A stretch of 64,000 bases of DNA. It comes from Gemmatales bacterium. GTDB taxonomy: Bacteria; Planctomycetota; Planctomycetia; Gemmatales; HRBIN36. A model generated the notes under the pieces. That model searched no databases and had not been told where the DNA came from. It saw only the letters and a program-made list of their open reading frames with translations. The stretch covers positions 1,201,195-1,265,194 of the forward strand of contig JBEPZY010000001.1 of the NCBI GenBank assembly GCA_041640595.1. Direction: 5' to 3'. The translations under genes and the position numbers were made by a program. The first letter of the stretch is position 1. Every line of letters begins with the position of its first letter. Of the stretch, positions 10,953 through 42,877 are shown in pieces.

Positions 10953-11064
10953 CGCTTCCGTGCTTTCGCTGTAATCAAGGATGATAAGGCCTCGGGGCGG
11001 GCAAATCTCGCAGTGGGGTTAGACCACCGCTTCCGTGCTTTCGCTGTAATCGAGGATGATCAGG
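10953..11064. repeat. 37-bp direct repeat pair around a 38-bp unique segment
   Basis: CGCTTCCGTGCTTTCGCTGTAATCRAGGATGATMAGG at 10953-10989 and 11028-11064, 2 mismatches. Confidence 0.95.
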
Positions 11065-11131
11065 AGAGGCCTGCCATCGCCTTATGGAAGCTGGTGCTTT
11101 CACGATGCGCTTGCGAATCCGTGATCGGGAA

Positions 11132-12286
11132 TTAAGGATTCCGGTTTAGGCTAGGGATGAATGCAGCCGAGGCTTGCACAGTCTCGAGCGGGACAGTGCA
11201 AGCATCCCGCCAGCGATGCAGCCAGGAGCATGCCTGTTCAAAGACAAATTCGGGCGCCAGTTCGCGCATGCAGCGGTGATCGCGCGGGCATCGCCGCAAT
11301 TGACACGGTCCGCAGGAGACAACCTGTTGCAGGTGCAGCGAGCGCGGATGGAAAGTTTCCGTCCAGGCGATGTGAGTCGGCCCGAAGATTGTAACCACTG
11401 GACGGTCAAAAGCTACGGCAATGTGTCGCGGCCCGCTGTCCGTAGTAATCAGCATCGCCACCCGTTTCAGGCACGCCTTGACCAATCCCAGATCGATCCT
11501 TTCGTGGTGCAATCCATAGACCTGCGGATGGCTGGAGAGCTTTTCAATTTCCTGGGCAATTTTTCGCTCGGCTGGCCCACACAAGACCAGAACACCACAT
11601 GCCAATTCCCAGGCCAGCCGGCGGGCCAGTTCCGCGAAATAATCCACAGGCCAGCATTTCGCCGAACCGTAAGCCGCTCCGGGGTGTAAAGCCACCACCG
11701 GACGAGTTTGCCAATTCCGCTTCTGCCAGATGCGCTCTGCGGCCGCCTCCTGCTCTGGTGTGGTAAATAGCTGCATTTGCACTCCGGGATCGGGGCATCC
11801 CAATCGCTGAGCCAGGCGGTTATAGGCCAGCAGGACGGGATAAGGTAACCGTCGGCCCTTTTCGATGGCTGGCCAGTCGAGTGCTTCCGTGAGTAACCAG
11901 CTGCGACCATCTCGTCGGTAACCGATACGGTTTCGGCAGCCACCCAGCCATGCCGCCAGCGCTGTCCGCAGGGAATTGGGAAATAATAAGCCCCAAGTTG
12001 CCTGCCTGGAGCGCAGTTGACGTACCATCGGCCAAAAATCGTCACTGGCAATCGCGTCGTCGAACCAGGGACATCCCGCCAGCAGTTCGGACAGATAACG
12101 CCGATAAACCGCAACGATTAACGCCTGCGGAAAATGCTGTCGCAAAGCCCTCAGCGCCGGCGTGCACATGACCACATCTCCCACCCAATTCGGCAAAAAC
12201 ACCGCCAGCACCGGTTTGGCGTCAGGCTTCGTTCCGGCAACCAGGCGAACCCCACCGGTGGTTTCGTCGAGCATCGGGGTGGTCAT
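11132..12286 (-). CDS. waaF: Lipopolysaccharide heptosyltransferase II (GT9)
   Basis: PNWVGDVVM, FPNSLRTA, HPGAAYGSAKCWP, TTDSGPRHIA, IFGPT, PCQLRRCP; start uncertain. Confidence 0.9.
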   Translation of the reverse strand: MTTPMLDETTGGVRLVAGTKPDAKPVLAVFLPNWVGDVVMCTPALRALRQHFPQALIVAVYRRYLSELLAGCPWFDDAIASDDFWPMVRQLRSRQATWGLLFPNSLRTALAAWLGGCRNRIGYRRDGRSWLLTEALDWPAIEKGRRLPYPVLLAYNRLAQRLGCPDPGVQMQLFTTPEQEAAAERIWQKRNWQTRPVVALHPGAAYGSAKCWPVDYFAELARRLAWELACGVLVLCGPAERKIAQEIEKLSSHPQVYGLHHERIDLGLVKACLKRVAMLITTDSGPRHIAVAFDRPVVTIFGPTHIAWTETFHPRSLHLQQVVSCGPCQLRRCPRDHRCMRELAPEFVFEQACSWLHRWRDACTVPLETVQASAAFIPSLNRNP

Positions 12287-12432
12287 GGCCGAACGAAACC
12301 TGCGGCTGCGCTGCAAATGGGACAGCCAGCACAGTTCTCGTGACTGAGCTGAACAAACTTATCTCCAGCAAGTGCCGTCTTTCGAGGAAGCAAGCTCCAC
12401 ACTGGTTCTGTCCTCCCTGGAAAGCGGACGAC

Positions 12433-16576: not shown

Positions 16577-17437
16577 ATGAACGCATACAGTCTAAACTTA
16601 GGCACGATGGCGCTATGGCTGGCATTTTCGGAAACAGTGTTAGCCCAGCTCCCGCCCAATACCGCGTCAGGCAACGGAATTGATAAACCTGCCTTCCGCC
16701 CTACCAGCGAAGCCACAGCCAACAGCCGATCAACTTCGATACGCCGACCAGGGCCTGACACTGCCGATCTACCTGACAGCCCTTACGCTGTACCGCCAGG
16801 TGTCGTTTACGTTGAAACCGCACTAACCTATCAGCGGAGTAAGTCTCCCGCTGATCATGAGTATTTCACGGCCACACTGGTTCGCGTCGGTCTTCTACAG
16901 AATTGGGAGCTACGGGTGGGCGGTCCGGGTTTGATCGTTCGGGATGGTTTGCCAGACTCCACTACCGGATTTGGCCCGATTACCATCGGTGCGAAGTGGC
17001 ACTGGTGGGAGGAAATCGAGGACAGGGGAACTCCTGCGGCCGGACTGATTTTCCAGGTAACCACCCCAACCGGTTCCGATGCTTTTCGGCCTGAAATTGC
17101 CGAACCGGCTGGCTTCCTCTCTTTTTGCCATCCACTGCCCTGGGAAATGGAATTTGAATGGAACGTTGGTCTTGCTCTGACCAGGGGCCAATGCGAGCGG
17201 ACTCAGCTTGAGGGTTGGCTATTGTGGGCTTTGAGCAGGCAAGTTACTCCGAATTTGAACGTATTTATGCACGGCTACATAGTTACGCCGGGCCTCGTCA
17301 GCGAGACCGAAATCGTTTTGGGGCCTGGTCTGATCTGGTTTATCAGCGAACGAATGGCATTGGATACCAGCTCGGTTTTCGGCGTTACCGACGATGCTCC
17401 TACCATCGCACGCGTGGGATTGAATCTGGCCTTTTAG
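16577..17437 (+). CDS. Putative outer-membrane beta-barrel channel (MetA-pathway/COG4313-like transporter family)
   Basis: Signal peptide, PDTADLPDSPYAVPPG.VYVE, LVRVGL...WELR, amphipathic beta strands, terminal Phe (VGLNLAF). Confidence 0.7.
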   Translation: MNAYSLNLGTMALWLAFSETVLAQLPPNTASGNGIDKPAFRPTSEATANSRSTSIRRPGPDTADLPDSPYAVPPGVVYVETALTYQRSKSPADHEYFTATLVRVGLLQNWELRVGGPGLIVRDGLPDSTTGFGPITIGAKWHWWEEIEDRGTPAAGLIFQVTTPTGSDAFRPEIAEPAGFLSFCHPLPWEMEFEWNVGLALTRGQCERTQLEGWLLWALSRQVTPNLNVFMHGYIVTPGLVSETEIVLGPGLIWFISERMALDTSSVFGVTDDAPTIARVGLNLAF

Positions 17438-17463
17438 CATCGGACGTCGAATTTCCCCCTGTC

Positions 17464-17576
17464 AGGTGTGCCAGTGGTGATTCGTTTCGGAGGCCAGCCA
17501 CATTCTCGTCGGCTTCCTCGAGGTTTAACCTACGCGAGGATGTGCCAGGGGGCTTCGTTTCACAAGCCAGCCAAAT
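17464..17576. repeat. Degenerate ~40-bp direct repeat pair, offset 73-74
   Basis: AGG-TGTGCCAGTGGTGATTCGTTTCGGAGGCCAGCCACAT versus AGGATGTGCCAGGGG-GCTTCGTTTCACAAGCCAGCCAAAT. Confidence 0.8.
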
Positions 17577-17655
17577 GACCGACGTGTGATATTTCGCTAC
17601 CTTATACCGTAACTTCCTGCCCACCAAAAGTCCCTGCCCAACGGAGTCAGCAACC

Positions 17656-20070
17656 ATGAAACAATGTCTGCTGGGGAACACGTGGTTACTGGTGATTCTG
17701 GTCGGAGCGGCGATGATCGGTTCAGCCCAGGGAGACCGTGTCAAACCGCCCGACCGCATGGTGCAAGAATTACTGCAACTTTCGCCCGACGTGTATCCGA
17801 CGCAGTCAGATGAGGCAAAGCGTTTACGGCAAGCGTGGCCGGAATTGTTGCGTGATGGCTTACGGCAGGCGAATCGTCGCAGTACCCAACAATGGCAAGG
17901 CTTGCAAAGTCGGGCCGATTGGGAGCAATTCCGTCGGGAAAAACTGGCAAAGCTTCGCCAGGCCCTTGCCATTCCCGAAGCTCCACCACCTGCGCCACGG
18001 GTAATGGTGACCGGACGCATCCGCGGCGAAGGTTACCGCATCGAAAACTTGCTCTACGAAAGCCGGCCTGGTCTGTGGGTCAGTGCGAATCTCTATTTGC
18101 CCGAACCGGTCCAGGCAAAGCCAGCCGGGTTGATCCTGGTGCACAGCCATCACACTCCGAAATGGCATACTGAATTGCAGGACATGGGCATCCTGTGGGC
18201 GAAAGCGGGATCGGCTGTGCTGGTGCCGGACTTGCTCGGTCACGGTGAGCGGCGGACCCATCCTTTCGTAGATGCCAAAAGTTTCCCCGAACCATTCCGG
18301 GTGGGTCGGCAGGATTATTACTTCCGCTACAACACGGCAGCGCAGTTGTACCTGCTGGGAGAAACGTTGATGGGCTGGATGGTGTGGGATTTGCGATGCG
18401 GTGTGGAGGTGTTGCTCAAGCATGCTCAGGCGGATCCAAAGCGGATCGGCATTTTGGGCTCTGTGGCCGGTGGAGGCGATGTGGCTGCTGTAACCGCCGC
18501 CGTCGAGGAACGCATCTCCGCTGCGGTGGTCTTCAACTTCGGCGGACCGGAACCGGAAGACCCGTTCCCACTACCAGACGATGCCGAGGTCTCTTTCAAC
18601 TACGCAGGTAGTGGCTCCTGGGAATCCACGCGCAACCTGATCCATTCGGCCCGTGATGGATTTTTGCCGTGGGTCATCGTGGGAGCGATCGCCCCGCGAC
18701 GGCTCTGCTATGCTCATGAGTTCAGTTGGGACCGCGAGCGCGATCCAGTATGGAGACGCCTGCAGCGCATTTGGGCATGGTATGAGGTGCCGGAGCATTT
18801 GCGCTACGCTCACGGTCGCGGTCAACTAAGCGGAAAGCCCCCGGAAAGCACTCACTGCACCCATATCGGCGAATTTCACCGTCGCTCCGGAGTTTACCAG
18901 GCACTCCAGGCATGGTTTGGTTTGCCAATTCCGCAACACGAAAACACGACGCATTATTCCATCACCGAACTGACCTGCTGGACAGAAGAAGCACGCAGGC
19001 AGCTCCGTCCATTGCCCTGGCCCGAATGGCTTTCGCGCTGGTATGAACAACAAAAGGCGAGTATCAAAACTACTTCCGTTGGCCCGACGGCAAACGAAGT
19101 ATGGGCTGGCTGGGTCAAACGAAACGCCGATCGGCAAAAGGAGCCCGCCCGCCCTGCTCTGGTTCGCCAGCAAGCGTTCCAGGGAGGTCGTGCACAGTGG
19201 TGGCTGGTATCCAATCTGGACGGCATGCCAATCCCTGTTATGTTGCTCCTCGCTGATACTGGGGGTAAACAAAAACCGGGCGTGGTCGCCGTCTGTTCGC
19301 AGGGCAAGGCAAGGTTTTTGCGTGAACACGCCGGAGCGGTGGCGCAATTGCTCGCCTCCGGTGTGGATGTCTGCCTGGTGGATGTGCGCGGCGTTGGCGA
19401 GACGGCAACGGAGAGCGTTCCCAGTCGCACGGGTGCAGGCACGTCGCATGCCGCTACCGCACTTATGCTCGGCCAGAGTATCGTCGAACTTCGTCTGCTG
19501 GATCTGCTGGCCGTTGTAGGCGACGAACAATCGCCCAGGGCCGATAATGCCCCCAAGCGGCGGATAGCGGTGTGGGGAACGGATGAAGGTCCGGTCAATG
19601 GGCCGGCAATTATGACCGAAGTGCCCTGGGATGCGAGTCGGTTGCCGGCTTTCGCCGACCCGACCGGTCCTCATTTAGCCTTACGTTTGGCAGCGCTGGA
19701 TAAAGCGGTGGTAGCTGTCTATGCTGCCGGTGAACTGGCGAGTTATCGTTCCGCCCTGGCCTCCCCATTCTTGTTTCTGCCGCTGGCTGCTATCGAGCCG
19801 GGTATGCTCGATCCGAAACGGGGTCGCGGCGACCCAGCCGACTTATTGCCTAGCCTTGCTCCACGGCCAGTACGGCTGGAAGCGCTTCGGGATGCCCGGA
19901 ATCGTTTGCTCAACGATGCTTCCGTGCAATCCTGGCTCGCAGACTTACACGCCACACTTCGCCAGTACGGACACCGCCAACCGGAAACGTGGCTCCAGGC
20001 CAGCAGCCAGCGCAGTTCTGACACCGACATCGCCCTCTGGCTCCTCCGCCACCTTCACCGCAATCACTGA
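17656..20070 (+). CDS. Secreted tandem alpha/beta-hydrolase-fold protein (acetylxylan esterase/dienelactone hydrolase-like)
   Basis: Signal peptide, GYRIENLLYESRPGLWVSANLYLP, PDLLGHGER, GWMVWDL, DPKRIGILG; second domain with VDVRGVGET. Confidence 0.8.
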   Translation: MKQCLLGNTWLLVILVGAAMIGSAQGDRVKPPDRMVQELLQLSPDVYPTQSDEAKRLRQAWPELLRDGLRQANRRSTQQWQGLQSRADWEQFRREKLAKLRQALAIPEAPPPAPRVMVTGRIRGEGYRIENLLYESRPGLWVSANLYLPEPVQAKPAGLILVHSHHTPKWHTELQDMGILWAKAGSAVLVPDLLGHGERRTHPFVDAKSFPEPFRVGRQDYYFRYNTAAQLYLLGETLMGWMVWDLRCGVEVLLKHAQADPKRIGILGSVAGGGDVAAVTAAVEERISAAVVFNFGGPEPEDPFPLPDDAEVSFNYAGSGSWESTRNLIHSARDGFLPWVIVGAIAPRRLCYAHEFSWDRERDPVWRRLQRIWAWYEVPEHLRYAHGRGQLSGKPPESTHCTHIGEFHRRSGVYQALQAWFGLPIPQHENTTHYSITELTCWTEEARRQLRPLPWPEWLSRWYEQQKASIKTTSVGPTANEVWAGWVKRNADRQKEPARPALVRQQAFQGGRAQWWLVSNLDGMPIPVMLLLADTGGKQKPGVVAVCSQGKARFLREHAGAVAQLLASGVDVCLVDVRGVGETATESVPSRTGAGTSHAATALMLGQSIVELRLLDLLAVVGDEQSPRADNAPKRRIAVWGTDEGPVNGPAIMTEVPWDASRLPAFADPTGPHLALRLAALDKAVVAVYAAGELASYRSALASPFLFLPLAAIEPGMLDPKRGRGDPADLLPSLAPRPVRLEALRDARNRLLNDASVQSWLADLHATLRQYGHRQPETWLQASSQRSSDTDIALWLLRHLHRNH

Positions 20071-20264
20071 ACCTCTAACCGTAACCCTGCCGGGCGAAAT
20101 TGCGTTCGGTACTTGATCCGCGATCAAGCAACGGCAAGAGGAATAATCGCTAGGATGATTGCAAACCGGAATGGTTCGACTGAATGAACCGCACATCGCT
20201 ATCCAAGCCGGCTCTACCGAAGAATATCCAGTGCGGATAAGCCAAGTTTGGGAAGGAAGTGGGC

Positions 20265-20717
20265 ATGCTTACGCGGCAGGAATTCGATGTCATTCTCGCG
20301 GACACCACCAAGCGCATCCTGGGAGATATTGATTGGCGAGAAGATGCAGACCATTCTCCGGCCCGCGAATTTCGCATCGAGGTTAGCTCGGATAACGGAT
20401 GGCCCATTTTCATCGTCGGCCGTTGGAATCCCTATGCCGGGACGTTGAGCTACGTTCTCATCCATCGCGGTGCCGGACGCATCTACGGACTGGACCTGGG
20501 CGCTGATCATCACAATCCTACTTGCGAGCGGGTCGGCGAGAAACATAAGCACGCATGGACTGAAGAATTTCGCGATAAGCAGGCTTACGTGCCCAGCGAC
20601 ATCACAGCGTCTTGGGACCAGCCCGTGGAGGTGTGGCGTCAGTTTTGCCGTCAGGCCAACATCACGCACCAGGGTCAAATGCATCCTCCCTCGGTGCAAG
20701 GGGAACTAATCCCATGA
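20265..20717 (+). CDS. DUF6978-like hypothetical protein
   Basis: LDLGADHHNP...KHKHAW.E...DKQAY His-rich motif and the FC..ANI ending typical of this family (recalled, not searched). Confidence 0.7.
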   Translation: MLTRQEFDVILADTTKRILGDIDWREDADHSPAREFRIEVSSDNGWPIFIVGRWNPYAGTLSYVLIHRGAGRIYGLDLGADHHNPTCERVGEKHKHAWTEEFRDKQAYVPSDITASWDQPVEVWRQFCRQANITHQGQMHPPSVQGELIP

Positions 20718-21490
20718 CTTGCGAAGAACTGCGTGCGCAATTGCACGCATCCGGACATCTGCTATTTGAATGCAGTCCGGCCCCACGGGAAGGGATCAGA
20801 GTCCGGACATTTTTGCTTTATCCGGACGGAGGCATCATTGATGTTTTCGTCGTGGAGCGGGATGGACAGTTAGAGGTGACCGATTTCGGCGAAGCTTTGG
20901 GCTGGCTTCGCCTGCAATCTCCGAGAGGACATCTTTCCCCCAAGCAAAAGCGTCTGATTGCTGACGTATGTCTTACCCTGGGCGTGGAATGTTTTCGTGG
21001 CCAGCTGGTGTGCCGAGTCAAAAATAATGACGTCTCCGCGGCAGTTCTGAAGGTGGCTCAAGCAGTGCTGCGCGTGACCGATTTGTGGTTCACCATGCGC
21101 ACGCGAGTAATTGAAAATGTCGCAGACGAAGTGGCGGACTGGCTCAGCGAGAAAGGCATTGCCTTTGAACGTGGTGCCACACACGTCGGTCGTTCGGGAC
21201 GTGTCTGGACCGTGGACTACCAGACGCACTTGCCTCAACGTACCTCGCTTGTTTTCCTGCTCGCTACAGGTTCGCGTGCGGCAGCCCGTCGAGTCACCGA
21301 ACATGTGCTGGCCGGGTTATACGACCTCAGCCACCTCAAGGTAGTGCAGCCCCAGCTTGCGTTCGTCTCACTTTTCGACGACACCGAGGACGTCTGGCAG
21401 GAAGAGGATTTTCGACTCGTCCAGGATTTGTCCGTGGTGGCACGATGGTCGCGGCCGGACGAGTTCGAAAAGATACTGCGGGCCGCATGA
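20714..21490 (+). CDS. DUF1828 domain protein with C-terminal DUF1829-like (restriction-endonuclease-like) domain
   Basis: RTFLLYPDGGIIDVFV...VTDFGEALGWL; C-terminal HVGRSGRVWTVDY; ATGA overlap with the upstream gene. Confidence 0.75.
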   Translation: MTCEELRAQLHASGHLLFECSPAPREGIRVRTFLLYPDGGIIDVFVVERDGQLEVTDFGEALGWLRLQSPRGHLSPKQKRLIADVCLTLGVECFRGQLVCRVKNNDVSAAVLKVAQAVLRVTDLWFTMRTRVIENVADEVADWLSEKGIAFERGATHVGRSGRVWTVDYQTHLPQRTSLVFLLATGSRAAARRVTEHVLAGLYDLSHLKVVQPQLAFVSLFDDTEDVWQEEDFRLVQDLSVVARWSRPDEFEKILRAA

Positions 21491-21896
21491 ATTGCAAACA
21501 CCGCCGGCTCATTGCCAGGCAACCACCGCTCCGACCCCACAAGCAGCTCTCGGCGACACGCGAACATGAGGCTGATTTCTGGCACAGCCGTTCAGGGGCC
21601 ATATACCCCTACTTACACCACCAGCGTCAGAAAAACAGAACCAGGGTGGAATCCCGCTGGCAGCACGCCACACGTTATCGGTGACACGCAGCTATTGTCC
21701 CTGTTCACGCTTAGTTACGGGCTTTGTTCACGATAATTTCTTTGGCAAGCCAACGAATAAACACGAGGAGCAAAGTCAAGGGCAAAACCAGCAGTGCGTT
21801 CCGAATATATTTCCTAGCTAGCCCACGGCCAGGCTTCTTTTTTCGGTGCTCAGGCGAACATCCGGAACCGAGTCGGCAAGGTGGACACCAGGCGAC

Positions 21897-22784
21897 ATGG
21901 ACACCACGCTGTTAGCCGACAACACCGTCGGCAAAATCTATTTCGCGGATAACCTGGAGGTGCTCAGGACGTTTCCGGACGAATCGGTGGATTTGATCTA
22001 CATCGATCCGCCGTTCAACACCGGGAAGGTACAGGAACGCATCTCCATCAAAGCGGTGAGGTCGGAAGAAGGTGACCGGGTCGGCTTTCAGGGACGTCGC
22101 TACCAAAGCGTCGTCATCGGGAGAAAGCGTTTCGCGGATATGTTCGACGACTACCTGGGCTTCCTGGAACCGCGTCTGGTCGAAGCCTACCGCATTCTCG
22201 CGCCCCACGGATCGCTGTATTTCCATGTGGATTACCGTGAGGTGCACTATTGCAAGGTGCTGCTCGACTGCATATTTGGCCGACAGTGTTTCCTGAACGA
22301 AATCATCTGGGCCTATGACTACGGTGGGCGTCCTAAAGACAGATGGCCGGCTAAACACGACAACATTCTGCTTTACGTGAAAAGTCCTGGTCAGCACGTG
22401 TTCAATGCAGATGCGATCGAACGCATACCGTATATGGCCCCAGGATTGGTAGGTGCGGAGAAAGCAGCCCGCGGAAAACTACCGACCGATGTCTGGTGGC
22501 ACACCATCGTTCCGACCAATAGCGCTGAAAAAACGGGATACCCGACCCAGAAGCCCCTGGGCATCCTTCGCCGCATCATTCAGGCCTCTTCTCGACCGGG
22601 TGCCGTTGTGCTCGACTTTTTTGCCGGCAGCGGAACGACCGGGATGGCTGCCCTCGAACTGGGCCGCCGCTTTATTCTCGTGGACAACAACCCCGAAGCC
22701 CTGGCAGTGATGGCTCGCCGCTTCGACGGCATCAAAGGAATCACATGGTCCGGCTTCGACCCTGCTGCATCGCGGAGAATTTGA
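21897..22784 (+). CDS. Site-specific DNA methyltransferase (N6A/N4C, beta order), no cognate endonuclease adjacent
   Basis: Motif IV IYIDPPFNTG precedes motif I VLDFFAGSGTTG; YPTQKP; NEIIWAY. Confidence 0.95.
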   Translation: MDTTLLADNTVGKIYFADNLEVLRTFPDESVDLIYIDPPFNTGKVQERISIKAVRSEEGDRVGFQGRRYQSVVIGRKRFADMFDDYLGFLEPRLVEAYRILAPHGSLYFHVDYREVHYCKVLLDCIFGRQCFLNEIIWAYDYGGRPKDRWPAKHDNILLYVKSPGQHVFNADAIERIPYMAPGLVGAEKAARGKLPTDVWWHTIVPTNSAEKTGYPTQKPLGILRRIIQASSRPGAVVLDFFAGSGTTGMAALELGRRFILVDNNPEALAVMARRFDGIKGITWSGFDPAASRRI

Positions 22785-22895
22785 ATCCGCAATTTCGATC
22801 AAAGGAATCGACTGGTTCGGTTTCGACCCGCTAGCGATTGCGACAGCGTTTCAATCCCACCGATCGAAGGAACCGCATGGTCCGGCTTCACCCGC
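22731..22895. repeat. Three degenerate copies of the methyltransferase 3' end, offsets 67 and 65
   Basis: ATCAAAGGAATCACATGGTCCGGCTTCGACCC (22731), ATCAAAGGAATCGACTGGTTCGGTTTCGACCC (22798), ATCGAAGGAACCGCATGGTCCGGCTTC-ACCC (22863). Confidence 0.85.
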
Positions 22896-22976
22896 AATGG
22901 TCGTTTTGAACGAATCCGTTACCGCGGCACCTAAGGAATATGCTTCGGCTTCGACCGAACCTTTACCGGAAACACG

Positions 22977-23221
22977 TCTGGCAGCGGCAAGCGGCGGTGC
23001 AGTTCTACGGCGACGAGGCGATGAAGCTGCTCCGCGACGCGGTGGCTAAGGGATTCAAGGATGCCGCTCGCATGAAGAAGGACAGCGCCTTCGACGTGAT
23101 CTGATTGGAAACAGTCACGGCAACGTCCAGCGCCCGCATGCAAAAGGACAGCGACCTCGACCCGCTGCGGCAACGTTCCGACTTCCAGCAATTGCTGCAG
23201 GAGTTGCTCGGCCCCCGGTGA
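22977..23221 (+). pseudogene. Remnant of the C-terminal TPR tail typical of planctomycete Ser/Thr kinase-TPR proteins
   Basis: Hand translation: YGDEAMKLLRDAVAKGFKDAARMKKDSAFDVI*, then RMQKDSDLDPLRQRSDFQQLLQELLGPR* in the same frame; no 5' part. Confidence 0.75.
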
Positions 23222-23524
23222 ATCGGTCAATAACCAGTTTCCCCTGGAAAAGTGCGATGACCGCCCAATGGTGGACCACGACGGCCCGAGTCCGCAAGCA
23301 GCGGACTGGTGGCCACGTGTCACATGGATTTTTGGCAGGTCGGTTGGCAAATTGGGACACGCCACAACGCCTTCTGCAACACACGTGAAGGGGAGCGTTA
23401 TTGTGGCCAGAAGAAAGTCGGTGCCGGAGAGGTTTTCGACAAGAATGGCGGCATCGCCCCTCGCAGTCGGGAACAATAGCGGCATGGCCTGCCACAATGG
23501 GGGCCGATATTGGTCCCGCAATCA

Positions 23525-23933: not shown

Positions 23934-23984
23934 GCGCTGGAGCCGGGCCGCCCTACAGAAGCGCGACGACGTGCGGGGCGGCGG

Positions 23985-25934: not shown

Positions 25935-26112
25935 GGCTCACTCCTGTCATTAGAGGTTGGTCGTTTTCCAGTCCGTTCGCTCCCTGCGGCCGGGGCGGGA
26001 AAATTGCCCACCCCTACGGTAGGCAAGCGCGGCAGCACCAGCCGAGTTAGGGTAGGTTCTCTGCAGCTCGCCGCACCGGTAAATCGTTCTCTCTTCAATT
26101 GTACAGCATAGG

Positions 26113-26400: not shown

Positions 26401-26434
26401 ACAATGGCATCAGGGAATTCAGTCGAGGCCAGCC

Positions 26435-27568: not shown

Positions 27569-27810
27569 GCACACTTGCCCGCCCCCGCCTGCGTATCATC
27601 CTCGTCCTCGCCACACTTAAAGCTGTTCGCACCACATCCGGCCTGCCTGGTGTGCTGTGCGTCACCGCGACGCGAATTAACTTTGGCCGCTACTGCACGG
27701 TAAACAGTTCCAGCTCGGCTTCGGTCGGCCAAGGCAAAAAAGCGAACCAGTCTGGGTTGTTCGAGAAATCCAAGTTGCGGAAGGCTCTGGCAATATGGTC
27801 CCGTAGGCTT

Positions 27811-30420: not shown

Positions 30421-30447
30421 GCGAGCGCTCCTTGTTGACCTCCAGCG

Positions 30448-30780
30448 TCCGCAGTCTTAGCCGCGAGTGCTCCAACTATTCCACCTGAGATGGTGATCGA
30501 AATGCTAAAGGGGTAATGTGCTTGTAGCGTTAGCCGTAAGCGACCCAAGTATCCCACTCAGGTGGCGAAAGTGCGGCTATGTATTCTGCTGGAGTTTGTA
30601 GCGTTAGCCGCCAGTGCCCCTAGCATCCCAGTCGGATTGCAGCAGTGCGGCAATGTGCCCTGTTTGGGTTTGTAGCGTTAGCCGTAAGCGACCCAAGTAT
30701 CCCACTCAGGTGGCGAAAGTGCGGCTATGTATTCTGCTGGAGTTTGTAGCATGAGCCGCCAGCGATCTAAGTATCTCAGA
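30448..30780. repeat. 74-bp tandem array (4 units, the last partial, plus one degenerate leading unit)
   Basis: TTGTAGC unit starts at 30522, 30596, 30670, 30744; units 1 and 3 identical; degenerate unit near 30448. Confidence 0.95.
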
Positions 30781-30811
30781 CCTGGGCCGGATTGTCTGGT
30801 GCTCGCTGACA

Positions 30812-31701
30812 CTTTCGCCGTCAGCGTGTATCGCAACGGTGCCGCTACCCCGTCATTATGCGAACCCCAGCCCACGATGTACACACACCTCTGTTCGTTG
30901 ACCGCTGATTTGACAGCGAGCTTGTTGCCCTGCTAGCCCTAGAGGGGCACATCCGCCTCTCGTTAACATTGACTCATTCCAAGGCATGCCTTCTAGAAAC
31001 GAGAGCAACTACGCCCTGGCAGACGCAGCCTTAGCGTGGCATGAGTGCTGGATTCTAGCCGGTGGCACAGCTCGCCTATAAAAATTCTTGATAAACACTC
31101 GCACAAAAGCTCGGCGAACGAAGCTGATACGGCGCAATGGGAGTCAGCCATGTCCAAACGTTTTACACTTAGAAAGGTGCTGTTAGGTATAGCTAGTCTC
31201 ACTGCTTTGCTGATCGGGGCTCCCATCTGGCCTATCTTTTCAATCGTAGCAGCAATGGACCGGCATTTCGATCTGACCACAATTATCGTGCTAATGACCG
31301 TGTGGAGTGTTGCATCGCTGGTGACTTTTGGCGTGGCCATGTACTTTATCTACCTGGTATACCACAATGAAGCGCTACAAGCAGAACAAAAGGTGATTTG
31401 GACCATGCTTTTGATATTTTTCTGGCCGGTGATGCCTGTGATATATTGGTACAACTATATTTGGAAGGAACCGCAAGCCGACCGGAGCCCACAAGGAGGC
31501 TAGCTCGTCACTACTAAATGCAGGATTCTGAACCGTCGCCTTTCCGCCGTCAGCGTATGTCGCAGCGTTCCGCTACCCCGTCATTATGCGAACTCGTCAA
31601 GGTTAGCTATAGACCATCCAGAGACGCACCCAATTACCCTGCTGCGTCATTATGCGAGCCCAGCCCAGGATGTACACACACCTCCGTCCTTGACCGCTGA
31701 T
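30812..31701. repeat. ~100-bp direct repeats (30812-30909 and 31540-31701) flanking a membrane ORF
   Basis: Shared CGCCGTCAGCGT, CCGCTACCCCGTCATTATGCGA, GATGTACACACACCTC, TTGACCGCTGAT; the second copy is about 65 bp longer. Confidence 0.9.
31150..31503 (+). CDS. Small membrane protein, PLDc_N-like C-terminal hairpin
   Basis: GGAG RBS; 3-4 TM segments; KVIWTMLLIFFWPVMPVIYWY. Confidence 0.75.
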   Translation: MSKRFTLRKVLLGIASLTALLIGAPIWPIFSIVAAMDRHFDLTTIIVLMTVWSVASLVTFGVAMYFIYLVYHNEALQAEQKVIWTMLLIFFWPVMPVIYWYNYIWKEPQADRSPQGG

Positions 31702-31986
31702 CGACTTCAATGACCGCTCCTTATAGACAGAAGGAATTACACTGTGCTATCTTTCATTAAGTAGCAACTGCTACCCTAAGCGCGAACAGTACTGTCAAGC
31801 TACCAACAAACCAAATCACAATCCCCTTCTTAGCAACACCGGCCTAACATTACTGATATGCCTAATAAGACGGGGCCTGAGCATCTGGAATCCATCGGCG
31901 CGAAGATGTTCCCCCTTGGTCAGGTGAACCACGCCTGGATATGATCTCGTCTACTTCCTACCCACACGGGAGAGGACATAAGTCCT

Positions 31987-32214
31987 ATGAAGAGGTCCAT
32001 CCGCAATTTCACTACGTACGATCGCGGTAATGCCGATGAGCTATTTGTAAGCGTCAGCACCGAAAATGGCCTCATAGCGCTTGTGCTGTCGCTGAAAGCT
32101 GACGGTGATATTACCGTGTTCCTGGACACCCCTGCTGCTAGAGAGCTAGCAAACGCACTCATTGAGGCAGCTAACCAGTCCGAATTAGAATACCCGCCCC
32201 ACGAAACTACGTAG
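31987..32214 (+). CDS. Hypothetical protein (75 aa)
   Basis: GAGAGGA upstream; globular protein-like composition (DGDITVFLDTPAARELANALIEAA). Confidence 0.6.
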   Translation: MKRSIRNFTTYDRGNADELFVSVSTENGLIALVLSLKADGDITVFLDTPAARELANALIEAANQSELEYPPHETT

Positions 32215-32667
32215 TTGTTGTTGCTGATGGGGGTCGGGGCGCGTTAGGACTGGGCTTTCGACCAGTACCTGCGGAAACCGATCGAGGAGTGGATCCGCAT
32301 GTGCAAGTGGCGTTCGCAGCCTGTGTTCAAAACACAGAGTGCATTCAATTTTGGGATAGCTTTGCGGCTGGACGGGAATCGCAGTGGCGATCAGCGCCTT
32401 TCCAGCCAGTGCACCTCAACTTCAGATGAGTCGTAAAATATTAGTGGGGTCGCGCCTTTACACCGCTGCAACTACAAGAATCATTCACATTCGGCCTCAG
32501 CATGGGCGAGCCGGTTTGAATTGATTATCATACACTTCGAGGGCATAAGATACCCCGTACTGACTCGGATGTGTTGGAGAGTAAACTTCATTCTTCTGGA
32601 GACAACCTAACAAACTAGTCACGGAAGCTTTTCGTTAGACAATTAACGAGTACCAGAGGAGGTTCAA

Positions 32668-33105
32668 ATGACACCAGAAGAGGTAATATCGAGGGCGGAA
32701 AATCAGCGAGAACTAGAAGATATACCCACTTATGATGCCTTCTTCCACCCGTCTCATATCGAATTTTTCGCAGAGCTTTTCCAGCTGAGGATTCCTATCT
32801 GGATTCCGGATTATGACCTCGCCAGGTTGAAGCGTAAGATATGGTTCATTAAGGTGATGGAGGTACCGACCAGGCGTCATGATCTACTTGTTTACCACGT
32901 CCAGAGGTATTTCGTCGAGCGGGAGGCTGAGCTAGACCGCCATGTGCTTGGAAGGTTAATCTACTCCCCTGAGAAGCGCTGCCTATCGCTATTTTCGAAT
33001 GACGGTCTGAAGGTCGAAATGGAAGTGTCGGCATTATGCGTTGAGCTGATAAAAAGACAAGAAGTGCGGTGGGATTGGCGTTGGCTTGATATCATCTGTT
33101 GTTAA
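32668..33105 (+). CDS. Hypothetical protein (145 aa)
   Basis: Strong AGGAGG RBS; AT-richer codon use than the flanking genes. Confidence 0.75.
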   Translation: MTPEEVISRAENQRELEDIPTYDAFFHPSHIEFFAELFQLRIPIWIPDYDLARLKRKIWFIKVMEVPTRRHDLLVYHVQRYFVEREAELDRHVLGRLIYSPEKRCLSLFSNDGLKVEMEVSALCVELIKRQEVRWDWRWLDIICC

Positions 33106-33709
33106 GATAATGGGACTTACGTGTGCTAGGCTTTTGGTACCCTTGGGCAACAGCGGGTATTCACTCTTGGGGGCGTAACTCTTCGCGTTTCGCCCTACGC
33201 GTTGCTGCGACCCACAACCTAGCCACCCCTCCGCGAAGACCCACTCTCGTTCATCACCGGCGGTGACCGCGATAGGGGATGTAAACTAGCCATGCCCCTT
33301 TCTCGGTATGAGAGAAACTAAGCAGACCGCCGGGCATGTAAGTTGCGAAAACGTGTTCGTGCCTCTACTTATACATGCACAGAAAATCAGCGCATCGCTG
33401 AACAGAGAAATTGTGGCACTATACTTGAGAATTCACTTCCCGGTACAATGCAAGTTGGCACACCGTTTGGCTTCCAATGTTAGCCGCGAAGGAGACTTGC
33501 CTTTGGCCTTGAGTTGCAATGCAAGTTGGCGCTCCGTAGGCCACCGAACGTGTGGCTCTTTGTCCGCGGCTCCAGTTATAGGCGCAAAGGAAACCAGAGC
33601 CTCGTCGGGCCGGAAAAGTTGCCAGAAACTATTGTCGGCTGTCATTCCTGGTTATTAATGGCTCCAATTGCTGGTTCGATGCGAAGCTAATAGATCGCCG
33701 GGCAGGTAG

Positions 33710-34285
33710 GCTGATGTGCGTTGTTCGCAAGCGTCTTGATGCGAATCGGACAGCTAAGCTTGCAGGCAGACTGCTGTCCTCTGTCCGCAACATAACCGAA
33801 CATGTGACTAAGCTCTTAGGCGCAAGGACATTCTAGCCGGACTGCTGTCGTTTGTCGCAACGTGACTGAGGGTCTGGTTAGTGTTTAGGCCCAATCTACA
33901 TTCCCGGCGGGCTGCGGTGTTTGTTCGCAATGTGACCGAGGGTCTGGATAGGCCTATAGGCCCAATCTGCATTCCGGGCGGGCTGCGGTGTTTGTTCGCA
34001 ATGTGACCGAGGGTCTGGATAGGCCTATAGACCCAATCTACATTCCCGGCGGGCTCTGGTGTTTGTTCGCAATGTGACCGAGGGTCTGGATAGGCCTATA
34101 GGCCCAATCTGCATTCTGGGCGGGCTGCTGTCGTTTGTTTGCTACGTGACCGAGCGTCTGGATAGGCTTTTAGACCCAATCTACATTCCGGGCGGGCTGC
34201 TGTCGTTTGTTTGCTACGTGACCGAGCGTCTGGGTAGGCTTTTAGACCCAATCTACATTCCCGGCGGGTCCGGTGTTTGTTCGCA
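33710..34285. repeat. ~71-bp tandem array (6 clear units plus 2 degenerate upstream units)
   Basis: GTTTGT unit starts at 33850, 33919, 33990, 34061, 34133, 34205, 34275; consensus GTTTGTTCGCAATGTGACCGAGGGTCTGGATAGGCCTATAGRCCCAATCTRCATTCCSGGCGGGCTGCGGT; no unique spacers. Confidence 0.97.
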
Positions 34286-34766
34286 TCGCCACTTATAGGT
34301 GGGACAAAGCTTACAGTGCTGGACAGGTATAGCGGTGCGGGGAACGGTGAGCAAACTCCTCTAATTCGGCAGAGTCTTCTTTATAAGTGGAACCGGGAAG
34401 GTATAGCTGTGCGGAACCTTGATAGGACGCCGTATCGGTCTCGTGCTCGCGAAAGTAACCGGGAATGTAAAGCTGTGCGAAAGCGCTAAGCGAACTCGGT
34501 TGGGTGGCGGTGGGCGACTCCGCCGACCCGAACCGAGTCGCGTCCGGCCTGCGTTAGCGAAACCCCGAAAGTCTTGTGATGCGGATCGCTCAGCTTCGCA
34601 TGGAAATAGCTAGCTGCCTGCCGTCGGCCACAGTGGGCGGAGCGGGATGGCAGTCGGAAAAGCGGGTTGGACTCACTCCTCACCAGAGAAATACGCAGAA
34701 CCCGAGGAGAAATTAGGTAGCCAGCAGTTAAAAAACCGTCAGTCCATCCCCGAATTCCGCCGGGGC

Positions 34767-34805
34767 TTGACGGAACCCAGGTGAGTCGGTAAAATTGGTA
34801 TAACA
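34767..34805 (+). promoter_or_regulatory. Sigma70-type promoter upstream of the metal ABC transporter, followed by an imperfect palindrome
   Basis: TTGACG-17 bp-TAAAAT, then TGGTATAACA (one mismatch from the TGTTATAACA core of proteobacterial Zur boxes). Confidence 0.55.
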
Positions 34806-35090
34806 TGGTAATACCGACGGTGAGCAACTTGGTTCAGATGGCTTCGTGCCTCTCGGACGGCCAGATGGTCAGGGAAGGCATTCCGAATGGCTTACAGGGC
34901 CGAAGGAGGCCCTTGCTGGCCAAAATAAACAAGCCATTGCCCAGCCATGGTGAAGGAACGCGCTGGTGCAGAACAACCGGGAGCCGCAGAGCCTGTTCCA
35001 CACAAGCTAGGAAGCAAGTCCTTTCTTGTCAATAACTTATGGCGAAAATCGCGGCGTATTTCCTGAAAATTTAGCAAATGGAGGTGGAAA

Positions 35091-36125
35091 ATGCGTGTCG
35101 GCAGAAAACCGGCAGACTCAAAGTCTCCGCAAGTGCAAAAATGGTGGCTGCGAATCCCGGCCAAATGGCTCGCGGTCGGTTTGGTCGTGTTGTTAGGCAT
35201 GACGGCTGGTGGATGCGTGAGGCGACTGGAAGGCGATCCCTGGGGTGGGACGTCGAAACTTCGCGTGCTGGCGACGATCGTGCCCTGGCACTGTCTGGCC
35301 GCCAGCATCGCGGAACCGGAGGCTGATGTCCGATGTTTGTGCATAACCAACGGTCCGCACGAATTTCAGCCGACGGCCGAAGAAGCGAGGCTGCTCAACA
35401 GTGCCGACCTGGTAATTGCGAATGGTCTGGGGCTGGAAGGGTTCCTGGTGCCGATGCTGCGTGGCAGTGGGCGGAAAGACTTGACAGTGTTGCGGGTGGC
35501 GGAAGAATTACCGCGTCGCGGCGGCAAGTTGATCGAGGTACCGGGCTATGAACATCACGGGCACGTGCATGGTCCTGGTAACGATCCCCATGTCTGGCTG
35601 GGTTTCCAGGAAGCGGAGTTGGCGGCCGAGATGATTACCGAAGCGCTGAGCCAGGCCCGTCCAGAGCATAAGGAAGCATTCCAGCAACGCTGCGAACAGG
35701 TCAAGCAACGACTGAATGCACTGCGTAAACAAGCTGAACCGCTGAGTCGCACGCAGGGCGCCCTTCTAACCGCTCATGACGCGTTTCGCTATTTCGGACG
35801 CTCGGTGTTCGGAGCGGACTACGAACAGCGGCTGATTGCCGTGCGCGGTTTGCACGGAGAAGAACTTGCCGCGGCCGACTTTGATAAACTGGTAATCGAG
35901 TGCCGCCGCAAACGTGTCCGTGCTTTCGCGATTGAACCGGGGTCTTCTCGCGTGATCCTGGATCGCATCCAGGAAAGTCTTGGAGAAAAACTGCCTGTCC
36001 TCGAACTCGACCCGATAGAAACGGCCGATCCAGACCCGCAACGCCGCTTCTATGTCTCCCCCGACTGGTATTTCAAGGTCATGGAAAAGAACCTGCAACA
36101 ACTCCTTGGGGTATTTCAGCCATGA
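35091..36125 (+). CDS. Zn/Mn ABC transporter substrate-binding lipoprotein (ZnuA/TroA family)
   Basis: Lipobox-like AGGC, GPHEFQP, NGLGLE, His-rich HHGHVHG, DPHVW, HDAFRYF; GGAGG RBS. Confidence 0.92.
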   Translation: MRVGRKPADSKSPQVQKWWLRIPAKWLAVGLVVLLGMTAGGCVRRLEGDPWGGTSKLRVLATIVPWHCLAASIAEPEADVRCLCITNGPHEFQPTAEEARLLNSADLVIANGLGLEGFLVPMLRGSGRKDLTVLRVAEELPRRGGKLIEVPGYEHHGHVHGPGNDPHVWLGFQEAELAAEMITEALSQARPEHKEAFQQRCEQVKQRLNALRKQAEPLSRTQGALLTAHDAFRYFGRSVFGADYEQRLIAVRGLHGEELAAADFDKLVIECRRKRVRAFAIEPGSSRVILDRIQESLGEKLPVLELDPIETADPDPQRRFYVSPDWYFKVMEKNLQQLLGVFQP

Positions 36126-39824: not shown

Positions 39825-40763
39825 TCACGATCCGCCTGTTGTTCCGCTCATCGCAGCAGGGCTATCCAGGGCGGCCCGCAACTGTCTCACCAATCCCTCT
39901 ACGTTGGAAAGCAAGTCCGGCAGCGACAGGTTCTCGGCCTTCTCCAGATGAGAAACCAATGCACTGCCGACGATGATCCCATCGGCAAAATCGCGAAGCC
40001 AGCGGGCGTGTTCAGGCCGACTCACACCGAATCCCACGCACAAAGGCAAATCGGTGATGCTTCGCAACCAGCGAAGCCGCTCGACAAGCTCTTCCGGCAA
40101 CCGCTCGCGCACGCCGGTTATGCCCGTTACACTCACGCAGTACACGAAACCGCTGCTGCACTCGACGATGCGCCGGGCACGGTGAGGAGGAGTGGTGGGC
40201 GTGACCAGCTGCACCAGAGCCAGTCCCGCTTCCCGACACCGCGTCGCCAATCCCGTCGACTCCTCCACGGGCAAATCCGGCACAATTAAACCACTGAAAC
40301 CAGCAGACTGACACCGCTCCACGAACCTGTCCTCCCCCTGACGAAACACCAGACTGTACGAGCACATCGCCACCAGCAACGGTGGCCGACTCTTTATGGA
40401 AACACCGGGCCCCTGGCCGCTGACCACCGACCACTGGCCACCCGTCTCCGAGTGCTGACCCGCCCTTGCCTCCTGCGTGCACCAGTCGCGCACCAGAGCG
40501 AAAATATCATCCGCACGCACTCCGTGACGCAAGGCACGGGTGTAAGCTGCCTGGATGAGCGGACCGTCCGCGATTGGGTCGCTGTAGGGAAAGCCAACTT
40601 CGATAACATCGGCTCCACTGCGGGCCAGGACCTGGAGCAATTGCCGTGTCGCTTCCAGACTGGGATCACCCGCCGGCAAAAACGTAATCAGAGCACGCCG
40701 ACCTGTCTGTTTCAGTTCCCGCAGGTATTTTTCCAAAACTGGAGTGGCCTGTGTGTGTGGCAT
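39825..40763 (-). CDS. trpA: Tryptophan synthase alpha chain
   Basis: AGDP, EVGFPYSDPIADGPLIQ, VPDLP, GFVYCVSVTGITG, VGFGVS, DGIIVGSA; start taken at MPHTQ. Confidence 0.97.
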   Translation of the reverse strand: MPHTQATPVLEKYLRELKQTGRRALITFLPAGDPSLEATRQLLQVLARSGADVIEVGFPYSDPIADGPLIQAAYTRALRHGVRADDIFALVRDWCTQEARAGQHSETGGQWSVVSGQGPGVSIKSRPPLLVAMCSYSLVFRQGEDRFVERCQSAGFSGLIVPDLPVEESTGLATRCREAGLALVQLVTPTTPPHRARRIVECSSGFVYCVSVTGITGVRERLPEELVERLRWLRSITDLPLCVGFGVSRPEHARWLRDFADGIIVGSALVSHLEKAENLSLPDLLSNVEGLVRQLRAALDSPAAMSGTTGGS

Positions 40764-41181
40764 GTTTCCCAGAAGAATGTTTGGCAGAGGCTGGACGGGT
40801 TTATCATACGCTCTCCGGCACGGTCTCGACAATAAAAAGGCCGGGCTGCGCATCGTTACTTTTGGCCACGCGATAGGCCGGACTGCTGCAAACAGACGAT
40901 CGGCAGGCGGAATTAGCGGGAAGAATGTGCCGCAACGGGGCGGCCATTCACGGCGAGCTTGGTCGCCAACGGGGCAAAGCAGTTCGGCCGTGCAGGCCAT
41001 GGTGCTCTCGGAGGCGGTTGCAGGTCGCAGGGTTGGCAGCGTCTCTGCGGTCTGGACCGCCTCTGCATTTTTCACTGTAACGTACAGTTAGATTCCACGC
41101 ACGCTTACCGGTGTGGTCAGGTTTATGCGTGACGGTGTTTCCAGACTGGATGGTTCGCCTGAGTGATTGTCCCAAAAGCTG

Positions 41182-42432
41182 TCAGTCTTCCAGCGCAAAA
41201 TCGAAAACGTTTTTCTTGCCAGGCTCGACGGTAACCTCCAGAGGCGTGGTCTTGACACTGGCGTACTTCTTGGGCAACAGGTTCACAGACGTTCCATCTT
41301 CTCGTTCGCGAGTCAACTGAATGGTCACCTTGTATTTACCCGGAGCAGCGCCATCCCAGGCCTCATAGGTGCTCAGCCGGTACTGGCCGCCAGCATCCAC
41401 CATGGCATCCGCCCGGGGATTCGATTGCGGTTCCACCGGCATGAACGTCACGAACGCTCCCGGCACAACTTCGCCGCGGTAAGTCACTTTGCCCTCTACA
41501 GGCGTGGTCGGAACCATCTTACGCTTCGACCCTGGCTCGAAAGTATCCGGTACCTGCAAGTTTTCAGTGTATATGCCGTCCAGGAGAATATTGCACAGCA
41601 CCGGGCCGTTTTTCTTCATGGTCACCCAAACCACGTGGTCAAACTCCCCGTAATCCACCCCGCGAAGCTTGCTGACACCGCCAGTCGTCGCCAGCTGATA
41701 ATAAATGCGGCCATGACGCACAAATCGCCGATAGCGGTGAATGTGGCCGGCAAAGACAGTGTAGGGCCGATCCTGGAGCAACCGCTCAAACTCCAGCCAG
41801 CCGGTCTCGGCTACTTTCGAGGAAGTCCACAGCGGCCGATGCAGGAAAATCAGCGTCCAGCGCACTCGCGGATTCGCTTTCAGCACCCGCTCGAAATACG
41901 CGATTTGCTCCTGCGAGATGTGCCCTTCTTGCGTTTTCGGCGGATCGTCCGAATTCACCATCAAAAAGAGCACGTCCTGATACACAAAGTGATAATACGG
42001 TTGCGAAAATTTTTCCTTCCACATTCGTTCCTGCACCGGGTTGGCATAATCATGGTTGCCCGGCACATAAAAGAACGGCATTTGCAACCGTGCGATGAAA
42101 CTGTTGAATTCCTGCCATTCCTGCTCCAACTTCTTCACGTCTTCCGTGTAGCCTTCGATCAAGTCGCCTACCGAAACCACAAAGGCCGGCTGCAACAGAT
42201 TCAGATATTCCACGGCGCGGGAGAAAATCTTGGCGCGGTGCCCGCCGGTACGATCGCTGACAATGGCGAAAGTGAATTCTTCGTCGCTGCGATTGATTCG
42301 CAAATGATTCCACGGATTACGCTCGCGCACTTCGATCTGCAACGCCGGACGCAACGGTGCCTGGCCGATACTCCAGGCCACCAGTCCGGCAAAGATCCCC
42401 GTCACCAGCAGCAGGCAAGTCAGCCGCTTCAT
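41182..42432 (-). CDS. Secreted calcineurin-like metallophosphoesterase fused to a carboxypeptidase-regulatory-like beta domain
   Basis: SDRTG, VGDLIEG, PGNHD, FLHRP, FAGHIH; C-terminal VEGKVTYRGE...DGAAPGKYKVTI...LPKKY...TTPLEVTV. Confidence 0.85.
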   Translation of the reverse strand: MKRLTCLLLVTGIFAGLVAWSIGQAPLRPALQIEVRERNPWNHLRINRSDEEFTFAIVSDRTGGHRAKIFSRAVEYLNLLQPAFVVSVGDLIEGYTEDVKKLEQEWQEFNSFIARLQMPFFYVPGNHDYANPVQERMWKEKFSQPYYHFVYQDVLFLMVNSDDPPKTQEGHISQEQIAYFERVLKANPRVRWTLIFLHRPLWTSSKVAETGWLEFERLLQDRPYTVFAGHIHRYRRFVRHGRIYYQLATTGGVSKLRGVDYGEFDHVVWVTMKKNGPVLCNILLDGIYTENLQVPDTFEPGSKRKMVPTTPVEGKVTYRGEVVPGAFVTFMPVEPQSNPRADAMVDAGGQYRLSTYEAWDGAAPGKYKVTIQLTREREDGTSVNLLPKKYASVKTTPLEVTVEPGKKNVFDFALED

Positions 42433-42877
42433 CACCGTTCTCCTTCTGACCAAGAATGCTACAGCACGCTCACGGTTCCAGCGCAGTTCCAAGCCACATT
42501 GTAGGATTCGCCTCCCTGGAATACAGTGCCATACCCGCCATCAATGCTGTAAATTTATGGTAAAAGTTCGGTTAGCCACTACCAGAGCAAGCGAGCCACA
42601 CCGCCATACTTCTGACGCAAAAAAGCCTCGGCGGTCGTCTCAACGTTCTGACTATCCAGGCTGTCCAGGTCGGTGACGGTTGGCTACGTAAAAAACGCCC
42701 CCCGGCGAAAGATTGAGCAGTCGCGCTGATACCCAGTCGCTGGCTGTGCGTTCGTACTGCTGGTGCAGCAGGGGCATCACCAGAGCCAACTATTGAGAGC
42801 GATAACCAAGCATGCTGCTGCAAAAAAACGAATTCCCGTGCGCAAGACGCAGTGGCACACAACCTGTCGTCTGTACT

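Follow-up and report, generated by a model that had tools for sequence, protein, structure and literature searches.

Probable scars of off-target spacer integration by two Cas1-Cas2 modules in a wild planctomycete genome

Over-expression of the type I-E Cas1-Cas2 proteins of Escherichia coli was reportedly found by Nivala, Shipman and Church in 2018 to generate new CRISPR loci (neo-CRISPR loci). According to papers that cite this work, off-target integration in E. coli spawns new arrays, and there is circumstantial evidence from two other species. Here we describe short duplication-plus-insert units in the genome of a hot-spring planctomycete, a Gemmatales bacterium (assembly GCA_041640595.1; 4.45 Mb in 42 contigs). 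They were noticed in a stretch of 64,000 nucleotides (nt), referred to below as the window, which lies on contig C1 (JBEPZY010000001.1, forward-strand positions 1,201,195 to 1,265,194). In each unit a piece of local DNA occurs twice around an unrelated insert. We consider it very probable that these units, called scars for brevity, were left by off-target spacer integration by both of the genome's own Cas1-Cas2 modules.

The E. coli neo-CRISPR loci reportedly carry a spacer-sized insert, flanked by a local duplication of the cognate repeat length, outside the array and with the possibility of gaining further spacers. The units reported here are alike in these respects. We found duplicates of repeat length and of local origin, inserts of spacer length, empty sites, cas1 and cas2 genes in the same genome and, for one of two classes, a protospacer pool shared with genuine spacers. 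In contrast to the E. coli case, there was no over-expression and no supply of oligonucleotides. The modules are a type I-B system with Cas4 and a Cas1 linked to a reverse transcriptase (RT), with rulers of 30 and 37 base pairs (bp), and not type I-E; a single wild genome shows fixation of at least 243 clean events, and one more is polymorphic between wild strains.

Three other phenomena invite comparison. Isolated or orphan CRISPR arrays have off-target acquisition as one of three proposed origins (Shmakov et al., cited in PMC13142298), and like them the units described here lie far from cas genes. Unlike them, they are mostly single repeat-spacer-repeat units below the size that array finders handle, their repeats are unrelated to the cas-linked repeats, and their empty sites are documented. 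PMC13769266 reports that Cas1-Cas2 alone integrates at non-canonical sites in vitro, fidelity requiring the leader and a DNA-bending protein, and that this architectural factor is HU for Thermotoga profunda's type III-A system and IHF in E. coli type I-E. In contrast to the products of this plasmid work in vitro, those found here are chromosomal and inherited; and whereas the reactions in vitro were promiscuous when factor-free, absence of a factor offers no explanation here, as two HU/IHF-family proteins are encoded. Finally, ectopic spacer acquisition, reported in Streptococcus thermophilus and S. mutans, is integration away from the leader-proximal repeat. It uses true repeats inside an array, whereas the events reported here use unrelated chromosomal DNA. 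A limited literature search, without supplements, found no paper on hundreds of such scars in one natural genome. The mechanism is already known; the natural scale is unusual.

A sequence-only reading of the window had claimed that duplications of unrelated local sequences surround short inserts with copy offsets in two tight classes. Both parts of this claim held, in the window and beyond it. Among the 14 diagonal matches of at least 23/30 found in the window at offsets of 40-130 nt, 13 fall at 65-67 or 70-75. Across the genome, a histogram of k-mer offsets has large peaks at 65-68, 72-76 and 88-93 nt. In the unmasked histogram most of the first two peaks is supplied by the canonical CRISPR arrays, and both arrays were masked before off-array pairs were counted. 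After masking, offsets 65-68 retained 204 seeded segments and offsets 72-76 retained 287; nearby offsets such as 58-62 and 77-80 had 0-7. A seed-free scan, which asks for a 30-nt stretch recurring at 23/30 identity or better, returned 275 pairs at 65-68 and 354 at 72-76; most other offsets gave 2-10, and multiples of three, coding repeats among them, reached at most 39. A large excess, as the earlier proposal called for, is present at 66 and 72-76 nt outside the arrays. In pairs at offsets 65-68 the duplicated length has its mode at 30 nt (29-31), and in those at 72-76 it has its mode at 37 nt (36-38); we refer to the two sets as the 30-nt and 37-nt classes. Offsets of the clean, box-type events defined below rank 66>67>65>68 and 74>73>75>72, and their insert lengths track the lengths of the genome's own spacers.

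These dimensions are those of the resident adaptation modules. The genome has exactly two canonical arrays (Table 1), one with 30-nt and one with 37-nt repeats, so that duplicate lengths and canonical repeat lengths coincide in both classes. There are just two cas1 and two cas2 genes, paired so that one cas1 and one cas2 adjoin each array. Cas2, Cas1b, Cas4, Cas3, Cas5 and Cas7 (type I-B), followed by Cmr1-6 (type III-B), are encoded beside the 30-nt array; Cas2, an RT of the group II intron type and Cas1 are encoded beside the 37-nt array. The stand-alone RT gene (C1:356904-358556; L011:13905-15557 in locus coordinates) lies between cas2 and cas1, which suggests that this module may acquire spacers from RNA. 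One or two promiscuous integrases, working at about 30+36 and 36/37+36 nt, had been postulated from the window; two arrays of matching period, with 35-38-nt spacers and a cas1 gene each, agree well with that proposal.

The duplicated sequence is particular to each site, again as first read from the window. When set against the canonical 30-nt repeat, duplicates of the 30-nt class have a mean identity of 12.4/30, compared with 11.4/30 for random positions (p=1e-4); the corresponding values for the 37-nt class and its repeat are 14.1/37 and 13.8/37, and comparisons of each class with the other class's repeat showed no shift. A functional CRISPR array has a leader and, at all of its units, one conserved repeat that the Cas6 of the system recognises; here every site has its own duplicate. 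These figures bear on the idea that the units are small orphan arrays, moved or leftover fragments of true arrays whose repeats have drifted. Four of 100 duplicates in the 30-nt class are indeed degenerate copies of the canonical repeat (23-26/30 identical), and one of the four, at C3:328836, encloses a spacer against contig C15 (see below) with CCG as its protospacer-adjacent motif (PAM). The other 96 are no more repeat-like than random DNA, the slight shift aside, and the first copy at 22731 belongs to the native gene and recurs in an orthologue. Because the duplicates are unrelated, the orphan-array account is refuted in general and holds for a handful of loci; as an explanation of the whole set we regard it as very unlikely. 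The 30-nt class does show a weak preference at the ends of its duplicates, with G as first base in 28/53 (p=2e-4) and C as last base in 27/53 (p=5e-4). The canonical repeat has the same ends, and repeats at other offsets lack the preference.

A further alternative is that plain tandem duplications of about 66 or 74 nt arose by replication slippage and that one half of each unit then decayed, which the sequence-only reading had itself named as fatal to its proposal. Tandem repeats of the whole unit do occur with these periods, at 30522-30775 and 33838-34285 in the window and in 11/175 and 41/253 segments of the 30-nt and 37-nt classes genome-wide, and the two inserts of the three-copy array at 22731-22894 look weakly alike by eye. 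At box-type sites, however, identity between copies is about 0.90 throughout the duplicate (mean of 140 and 163 sites in the two classes) and drops within a few bases of its edge to 0.25-0.35, the value expected from base composition. This box profile implies that the inserts are not decayed halves of tandem duplications. Such segments make up 124/175 of the 30-nt class and 119/253 of the 37-nt class; none of these has the homology over the whole unit that marks a minisatellite, which the two window arrays just mentioned do have.

Empty sites argue in the same direction. We removed the insert and one copy from each unit and aligned the predicted sequence, across its junction, to the rest of the genome; an uninterrupted paralogue was found for 45/407 sites. 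Clean alignments gave gains of 67, 66, 66, ~66 and 74 nt, the empty paralogue containing the target once and no sequence similar to the insert. One such case lies in the window, where 30800-30925 is an uninterrupted paralogue of 31529-31717, the filled version being 66 nt longer. A wild strain gave the converse case. The organism occurs in 20 metagenome runs from 16 studies, of hot-spring and mat samples. When metagenome contigs of four runs (X2, X3, X5 and X15) were aligned to window positions 17000-36000, one X15 contig (depth 6.7) read to 23816, continued with 36 other letters and resumed at 23779. This read-through implies a 38-nt duplication around a 36-nt insert (period 74) in the X15 strain, at a site that is empty here; the 36-nt insert was not found in this genome at up to 3 mismatches. 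In genome G017, the orthologue of the methylase gene that ends at 22731-22894 (83% identical) has the 22731-22762 tail once and diverges directly after it. Genomes of the same genus are only ~69-77% identical, flanking genes included, and no alignment with G003 was obtained for the intergenic DNA around 10953-11064. Under slippage, duplicates would not be expected to measure exactly 30 and 37 nt, nor would inserts be expected to match a canonical spacer, contig C15 or DNA far away on the chromosome; we judge it highly improbable as the origin of the units.

The inserts themselves are diverse. The 243 clean events fall into 227 distinct insert families, 213 of them singletons, and 201/248 inserts have no other match in the genome. 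At C2:174386 (offset 68) the insert and one spacer of the 30-nt array overlap, agreeing at 30/31 positions with a shift of 2 nt. A second link runs through contig C15, which is matched by 31 spacers near the cas-proximal end of the 30-nt array; NGG stands on the same flank in 26/32 of these matches, corresponding to a 5′-CCN PAM on the opposite strand. A 5′-CCN PAM is typical of type I-B systems. Two copies of one element share an off-target insert that agrees with C15 at 28/30 positions; no reversed control insert gave so good a match. Among off-target inserts of the 30-nt class with a traceable protospacer, NGG flanks 3/4; the three all come from the organism's own genome, one of them from a 23S ribosomal RNA gene. 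In the window, the insert at 22830-22862 ends in the same 15 nt with which the canonical 30-nt repeat begins, which suggests that this prespacer may have been taken from the array itself. For the 30-nt class, inserts and canonical spacers share one protospacer pool and one PAM. The search for insert sources and a PAM that the sequence-only reading had proposed thus gave positive results for this class, and the unknown short-insert mutator that it held in reserve is not needed. Contig C15 (L099:1-9585) is 9.6 kb long with 49.8% G+C, compared with ~57% for the genome. Given the 31 spacers that match it with a consistent NGG flank, this contig is probably viral or plasmid DNA that was binned with the genome; its 9 open frames gave no match to any PHROG family.

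The remaining alternative is an agent with no link to Cas1-Cas2, some unknown mobile element or integrase that would leave long target-site duplications around short inserted DNA. It could draw on the regional clustering and the modest proximity to a hairpin family described below, but we give it hardly any credence: a transposon or miniature inverted-repeat transposable element would carry one insert to many sites, the repeat-length duplicates, spacer-length inserts, shared protospacer and I-B PAM all point to CRISPR adaptation modules, and the only two Cas1-family genes found both adjoin arrays.

Under off-target spacer integration, the units would have formed as follows. Each Cas1-Cas2 would make two strand-transfer cuts on opposite strands at a fixed spacing, 30 bp for the type I-B module (Cas1b, Cas2, Cas4) and 37 bp for the RT-linked Cas1-Cas2. 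A prespacer of 35-38 nt would be joined at the cuts, and gap repair would copy the intervening 30 or 37 bp. With ordinary DNA as the target in place of the leader-repeat junction, the product would be a local 30- or 37-nt sequence, the spacer, and the same 30 or 37 nt again. The agency of these enzymes is what we infer from the evidence above. Chains of the form repeat-spacer-repeat-spacer-repeat number 18; spacers are dissimilar in 16 and both steps belong to the same class in 17, which indicates that the same enzyme struck some scars more than once, and these would so have become small arrays with different spacers. Slippage between the new direct repeats probably led, later on, to amplification of some whole units. 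The two copies of a duplicate differ by 0-8 bases and are identical in 18/243 pairs, a spread that implies events spanning a long time.

Sites in the window (Table 1) were recovered by repeat search and with Tandem Repeats Finder. Pairs were scored as the best ungapped segment on the diagonal, and 3000 random positions and offsets outside the two classes served as the null (99.9th percentile, 9.0). Ten of the 13 pairs listed by the sequence-only reading score 13-32. The pair 23543/23609 is borderline at 9.0, and 33219/33286 and 42615/42686, both marked as weak when they were listed, lie at chance with 7.5. The list lacked the arrays at 30522-30775 and 33838-34285, which have the same period. 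No other genomic locus carries their units, and we read them as scar units that were amplified secondarily.

Table 1. Duplication-plus-insert units, related sites and canonical CRISPR arrays. Positions without a contig prefix are those of the window; fractions are identical positions between copies.
Feature	Position	Strand	Context	Details
Scar, 37-nt class	10953-11064		Between a Kdo/WaaP-family kinase gene and a heptosyltransferase gene	Copies 10953-10989 and 11028-11064, 35/37; insert 10990-11027, 38 nt; offset 75
Decayed scar, 37-nt class	17481-17576		Intergenic	Copies 17481-17503 and 17554-17576, 19/23; offset 73
Three-copy mini-array, 30-nt class	22731-22894	+	3′ end of DNA methylase gene	Copies 22731-22762 (native gene tail), 22798-22829 and 22863-22894; inserts 22763-22797 and 22830-22862; 22731/22798, 27/32, offset 67; 22798/22863, 23/29, offset 65
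Scar, 30-nt class	23065-23161		Inside a short gene remnant; stop codon supplied by the insert	Copies 23065-23095 and 23131-23161, 26/31; insert 35 nt; offset 66
Pair not counted as scar	23544-23628			23543/23609, 15/19; score at edge of null
Scar, 30-nt class	23680-23779			Copies 23680-23713 and 23746-23779, 31/34; insert 32 nt; offset 66
Empty target site in this genome	23779-23816			Filled in run X15 contig
Tandem array of whole 74-nt unit	30522-30775			3.4 units; units 1 and 3 identical, unit 2 73% identical
Empty paralogous target, single copy	~30836-30865 (approximate)		Within segment 30800-30925	
Scar, 30-nt class	31566-31661			Copies 31566-31595 and 31632-31661; insert 31596-31631, 36 nt; core 31579/31645, 13/13, offset 66
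Pair at chance, outside the feature	33216-33292			33219/33286, 9/10
Decayed pair	33446-33537			33446-33466 and 33517-33537, 19/21; offset 71
Tandem array of whole 71-72-nt unit	33764-34285			Tandem Repeats Finder: 33838-34285, 71 nt x 6.3 copies, 88% matches; weaker units back to 33764
Three copies	34317-34482			34317-34342, 34391-34416 and 34457-34482; offsets 74 then 66; 66-nt step clear (23/26), 74-nt step decayed (34325/34399, 15/16)
Pair at chance, outside the feature	42615-42695			42615/42686, 9/10
Canonical 37-nt-repeat array	C1:359749-377935			247 repeats; spacers mostly 37 nt (99), 36 nt (81), 38 nt (38)
Canonical 30-nt-repeat array	C8:2-21973 and C10:65236 to contig end			317+27 repeats; spacers mostly 36 nt (165), 37 nt (108), 35 nt (36), 38 nt (26)

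Several further observations concern the window. Contig cover is broken in runs X3, X5 and X15, all three of which cover 22866-22873, part of the third copy in the mini-array at the methylase tail; run X2 contigs are interrupted within the 33764-34285 array. At 31991-33644, contigs of runs X3 and X15 join both ends with 21 other letters between them, so that other wild strains have a replacement for this gene-poor stretch of 1.65 kb, where the pair at 33446 lies. Beside the scar at 10953, an 18-nt stretch recurs at 10892-10909 and 10947-10964 (17/18 identical) with an offset of 55 that fits neither class. It covers the likely ribosome-binding region of the kinase gene and overlaps the first copy of the scar. 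The tryptophan synthase alpha gene (39825-41075, minus strand) matches solved TrpA chains at their residues 8-88 and 97-264, with an internal insertion of ~27 residues separating the two matching parts, and its longest open frame adds an N-terminal extension of ~110 residues. The 27-residue insertion contains no direct repeat and was ruled out as a scar. Rfam and transfer RNA scans of the window found none.

Genome-wide, 46-47% of inserts lie where no open frame of at least 450 nt covers them, compared with 8.7% of the genome, and we propose that scars survive mainly in DNA without intact genes. This is consistent with what had been seen in the window, where the sites were described as intergenic, pseudogenised or, like the methylase tail at 22731-22762, at a gene's 3′ end. 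The accompanying suggestion that the insertions inactivate genes stands, within the window, for gene tails and already decayed genes only. Scars are also clustered, with a median nearest-neighbour distance of 887 nt against 4900 nt under random placement, and their density ranges from 0.4 to 12 per 100 kb across contigs. The abutment of a new insertion on an old scar, as at 23779, is not a rule: 0/66 neighbouring pairs genome-wide lie within 5 nt of each other.

The third peak (88-96 nt) is not another scar class. One hairpin sequence is common to every site, and the peak is therefore a dispersed repeat family and not a set of site-specific duplications. The family has 904 copies genome-wide at up to 4 mismatches (for example C1:764202 and C2:38532), none of them in the window. 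Its members often stand in rows with an 88-96-nt period and partly conserved sequence between hairpins, and are concentrated on the scar-rich contigs C2, C3 and C4 and nearly absent from C6 and C7. As the main attractor of scars the family was also rejected: 18.3% of scars lie within 300 nt of a copy against 11.9% expected, a modest association only.

Cas1 was found in 20/31 genomes searched, this one included, and one relative allows a comparison between classes. G002, of the same genus, has only a cas1 of the 37-nt type, and an array whose repeat is close to that of this genome. G001 likewise has the 37-nt type alone, and G003 has both types. In the 822 kb compared, matches at 23/30 numbered 27 at offsets 72-76, of which, sorted by eye, 2 belong to its own array, ~10 to a coding repeat and ~13 are box-like; at 65-68 there were 2 adjacent, doubtful pairs with an offset of 66. 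Set against the 275 and 354 pairs found here, these class counts differ with a Fisher p=0.018, on small numbers, and fit the view that scar classes track the cas1 repertoire. Other samples gave 1 match in the 65-76 range (G004, 280 kb), 6 (G027, in which no cas1 was found, 200 kb) and 3 (G019, 200 kb), the last two sets resembling coding or low-complexity repeats. As 200-kb samples of the present genome themselves range from 4 to 67 matches, this sampling says little.

Several points count against off-target integration by the two resident modules and temper our confidence in it. The attribution is drawn from geometry and from sequence links. PAM and protospacer evidence concerns the 30-nt class only, the 37-nt class having no usable protospacers; only 1/248 inserts overlaps a spacer now in the arrays; and the insert derived from C15 lacks the PAM. 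Integration alone is insufficient for the whole-unit segments counted above, which need a second step. At 31632-31661 only the 3′ 13-15 nt of the copy are well preserved, the 5′ half matching at 7/15, and the strain polymorphism at 23779-23816 comes from a single contig of depth 6.7. Under strict seeded criteria, the contrast with G002 shrinks to 0 and 3 events in the two classes after removal of 4 artefacts from a run of N. Per 100 kb of gene-poor DNA, density still varies ~15-fold, from 2.7 to 44 scars (43 on C2, 39 on C3, 2.7 on C6, 3.7 on C7), and coding density and G+C content fail to account for this range over contigs C1-C10. Loss of an HU/IHF-type fidelity factor, which we considered as an explanation, is unsupported in any simple form, given the two HU/IHF-family genes.

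Most work on how Cas1-Cas2 finds the leader-repeat junction, and on what its misses cost the cell, has used in vitro systems or E. coli proteins that were over-expressed. Here a wild genome preserves at least 243 clean misses of two different integrases, one with a 30-bp ruler and with Cas4 for PAM selection, the other RT-linked with a 37-bp ruler. From this natural record, complete with empty-site controls, rulers, weak end preferences, insert sources and tolerance of sites can be read, along with small arrays growing from ordinary DNA. It also carries a caution for annotation, in that such mini-arrays are neither functional CRISPRs nor satellites. Because the mechanism itself is known, the value of the record lies in its scale and natural setting, and no new principle is involved. 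Tentatively, and with somewhat more doubt than conviction, we suggest that off-target integration by two unrelated modules is frequent and ongoing in wild populations and acts as a real mutational force. If so, the 15-fold range in density would point to a factor, on the host side or in chromosome structure, by which both integrases are steered, and the process would truncate gene tails, fill gene-poor regions with direct repeats and give rise to new arrays able to take up spacers, a natural birth of CRISPR arrays.

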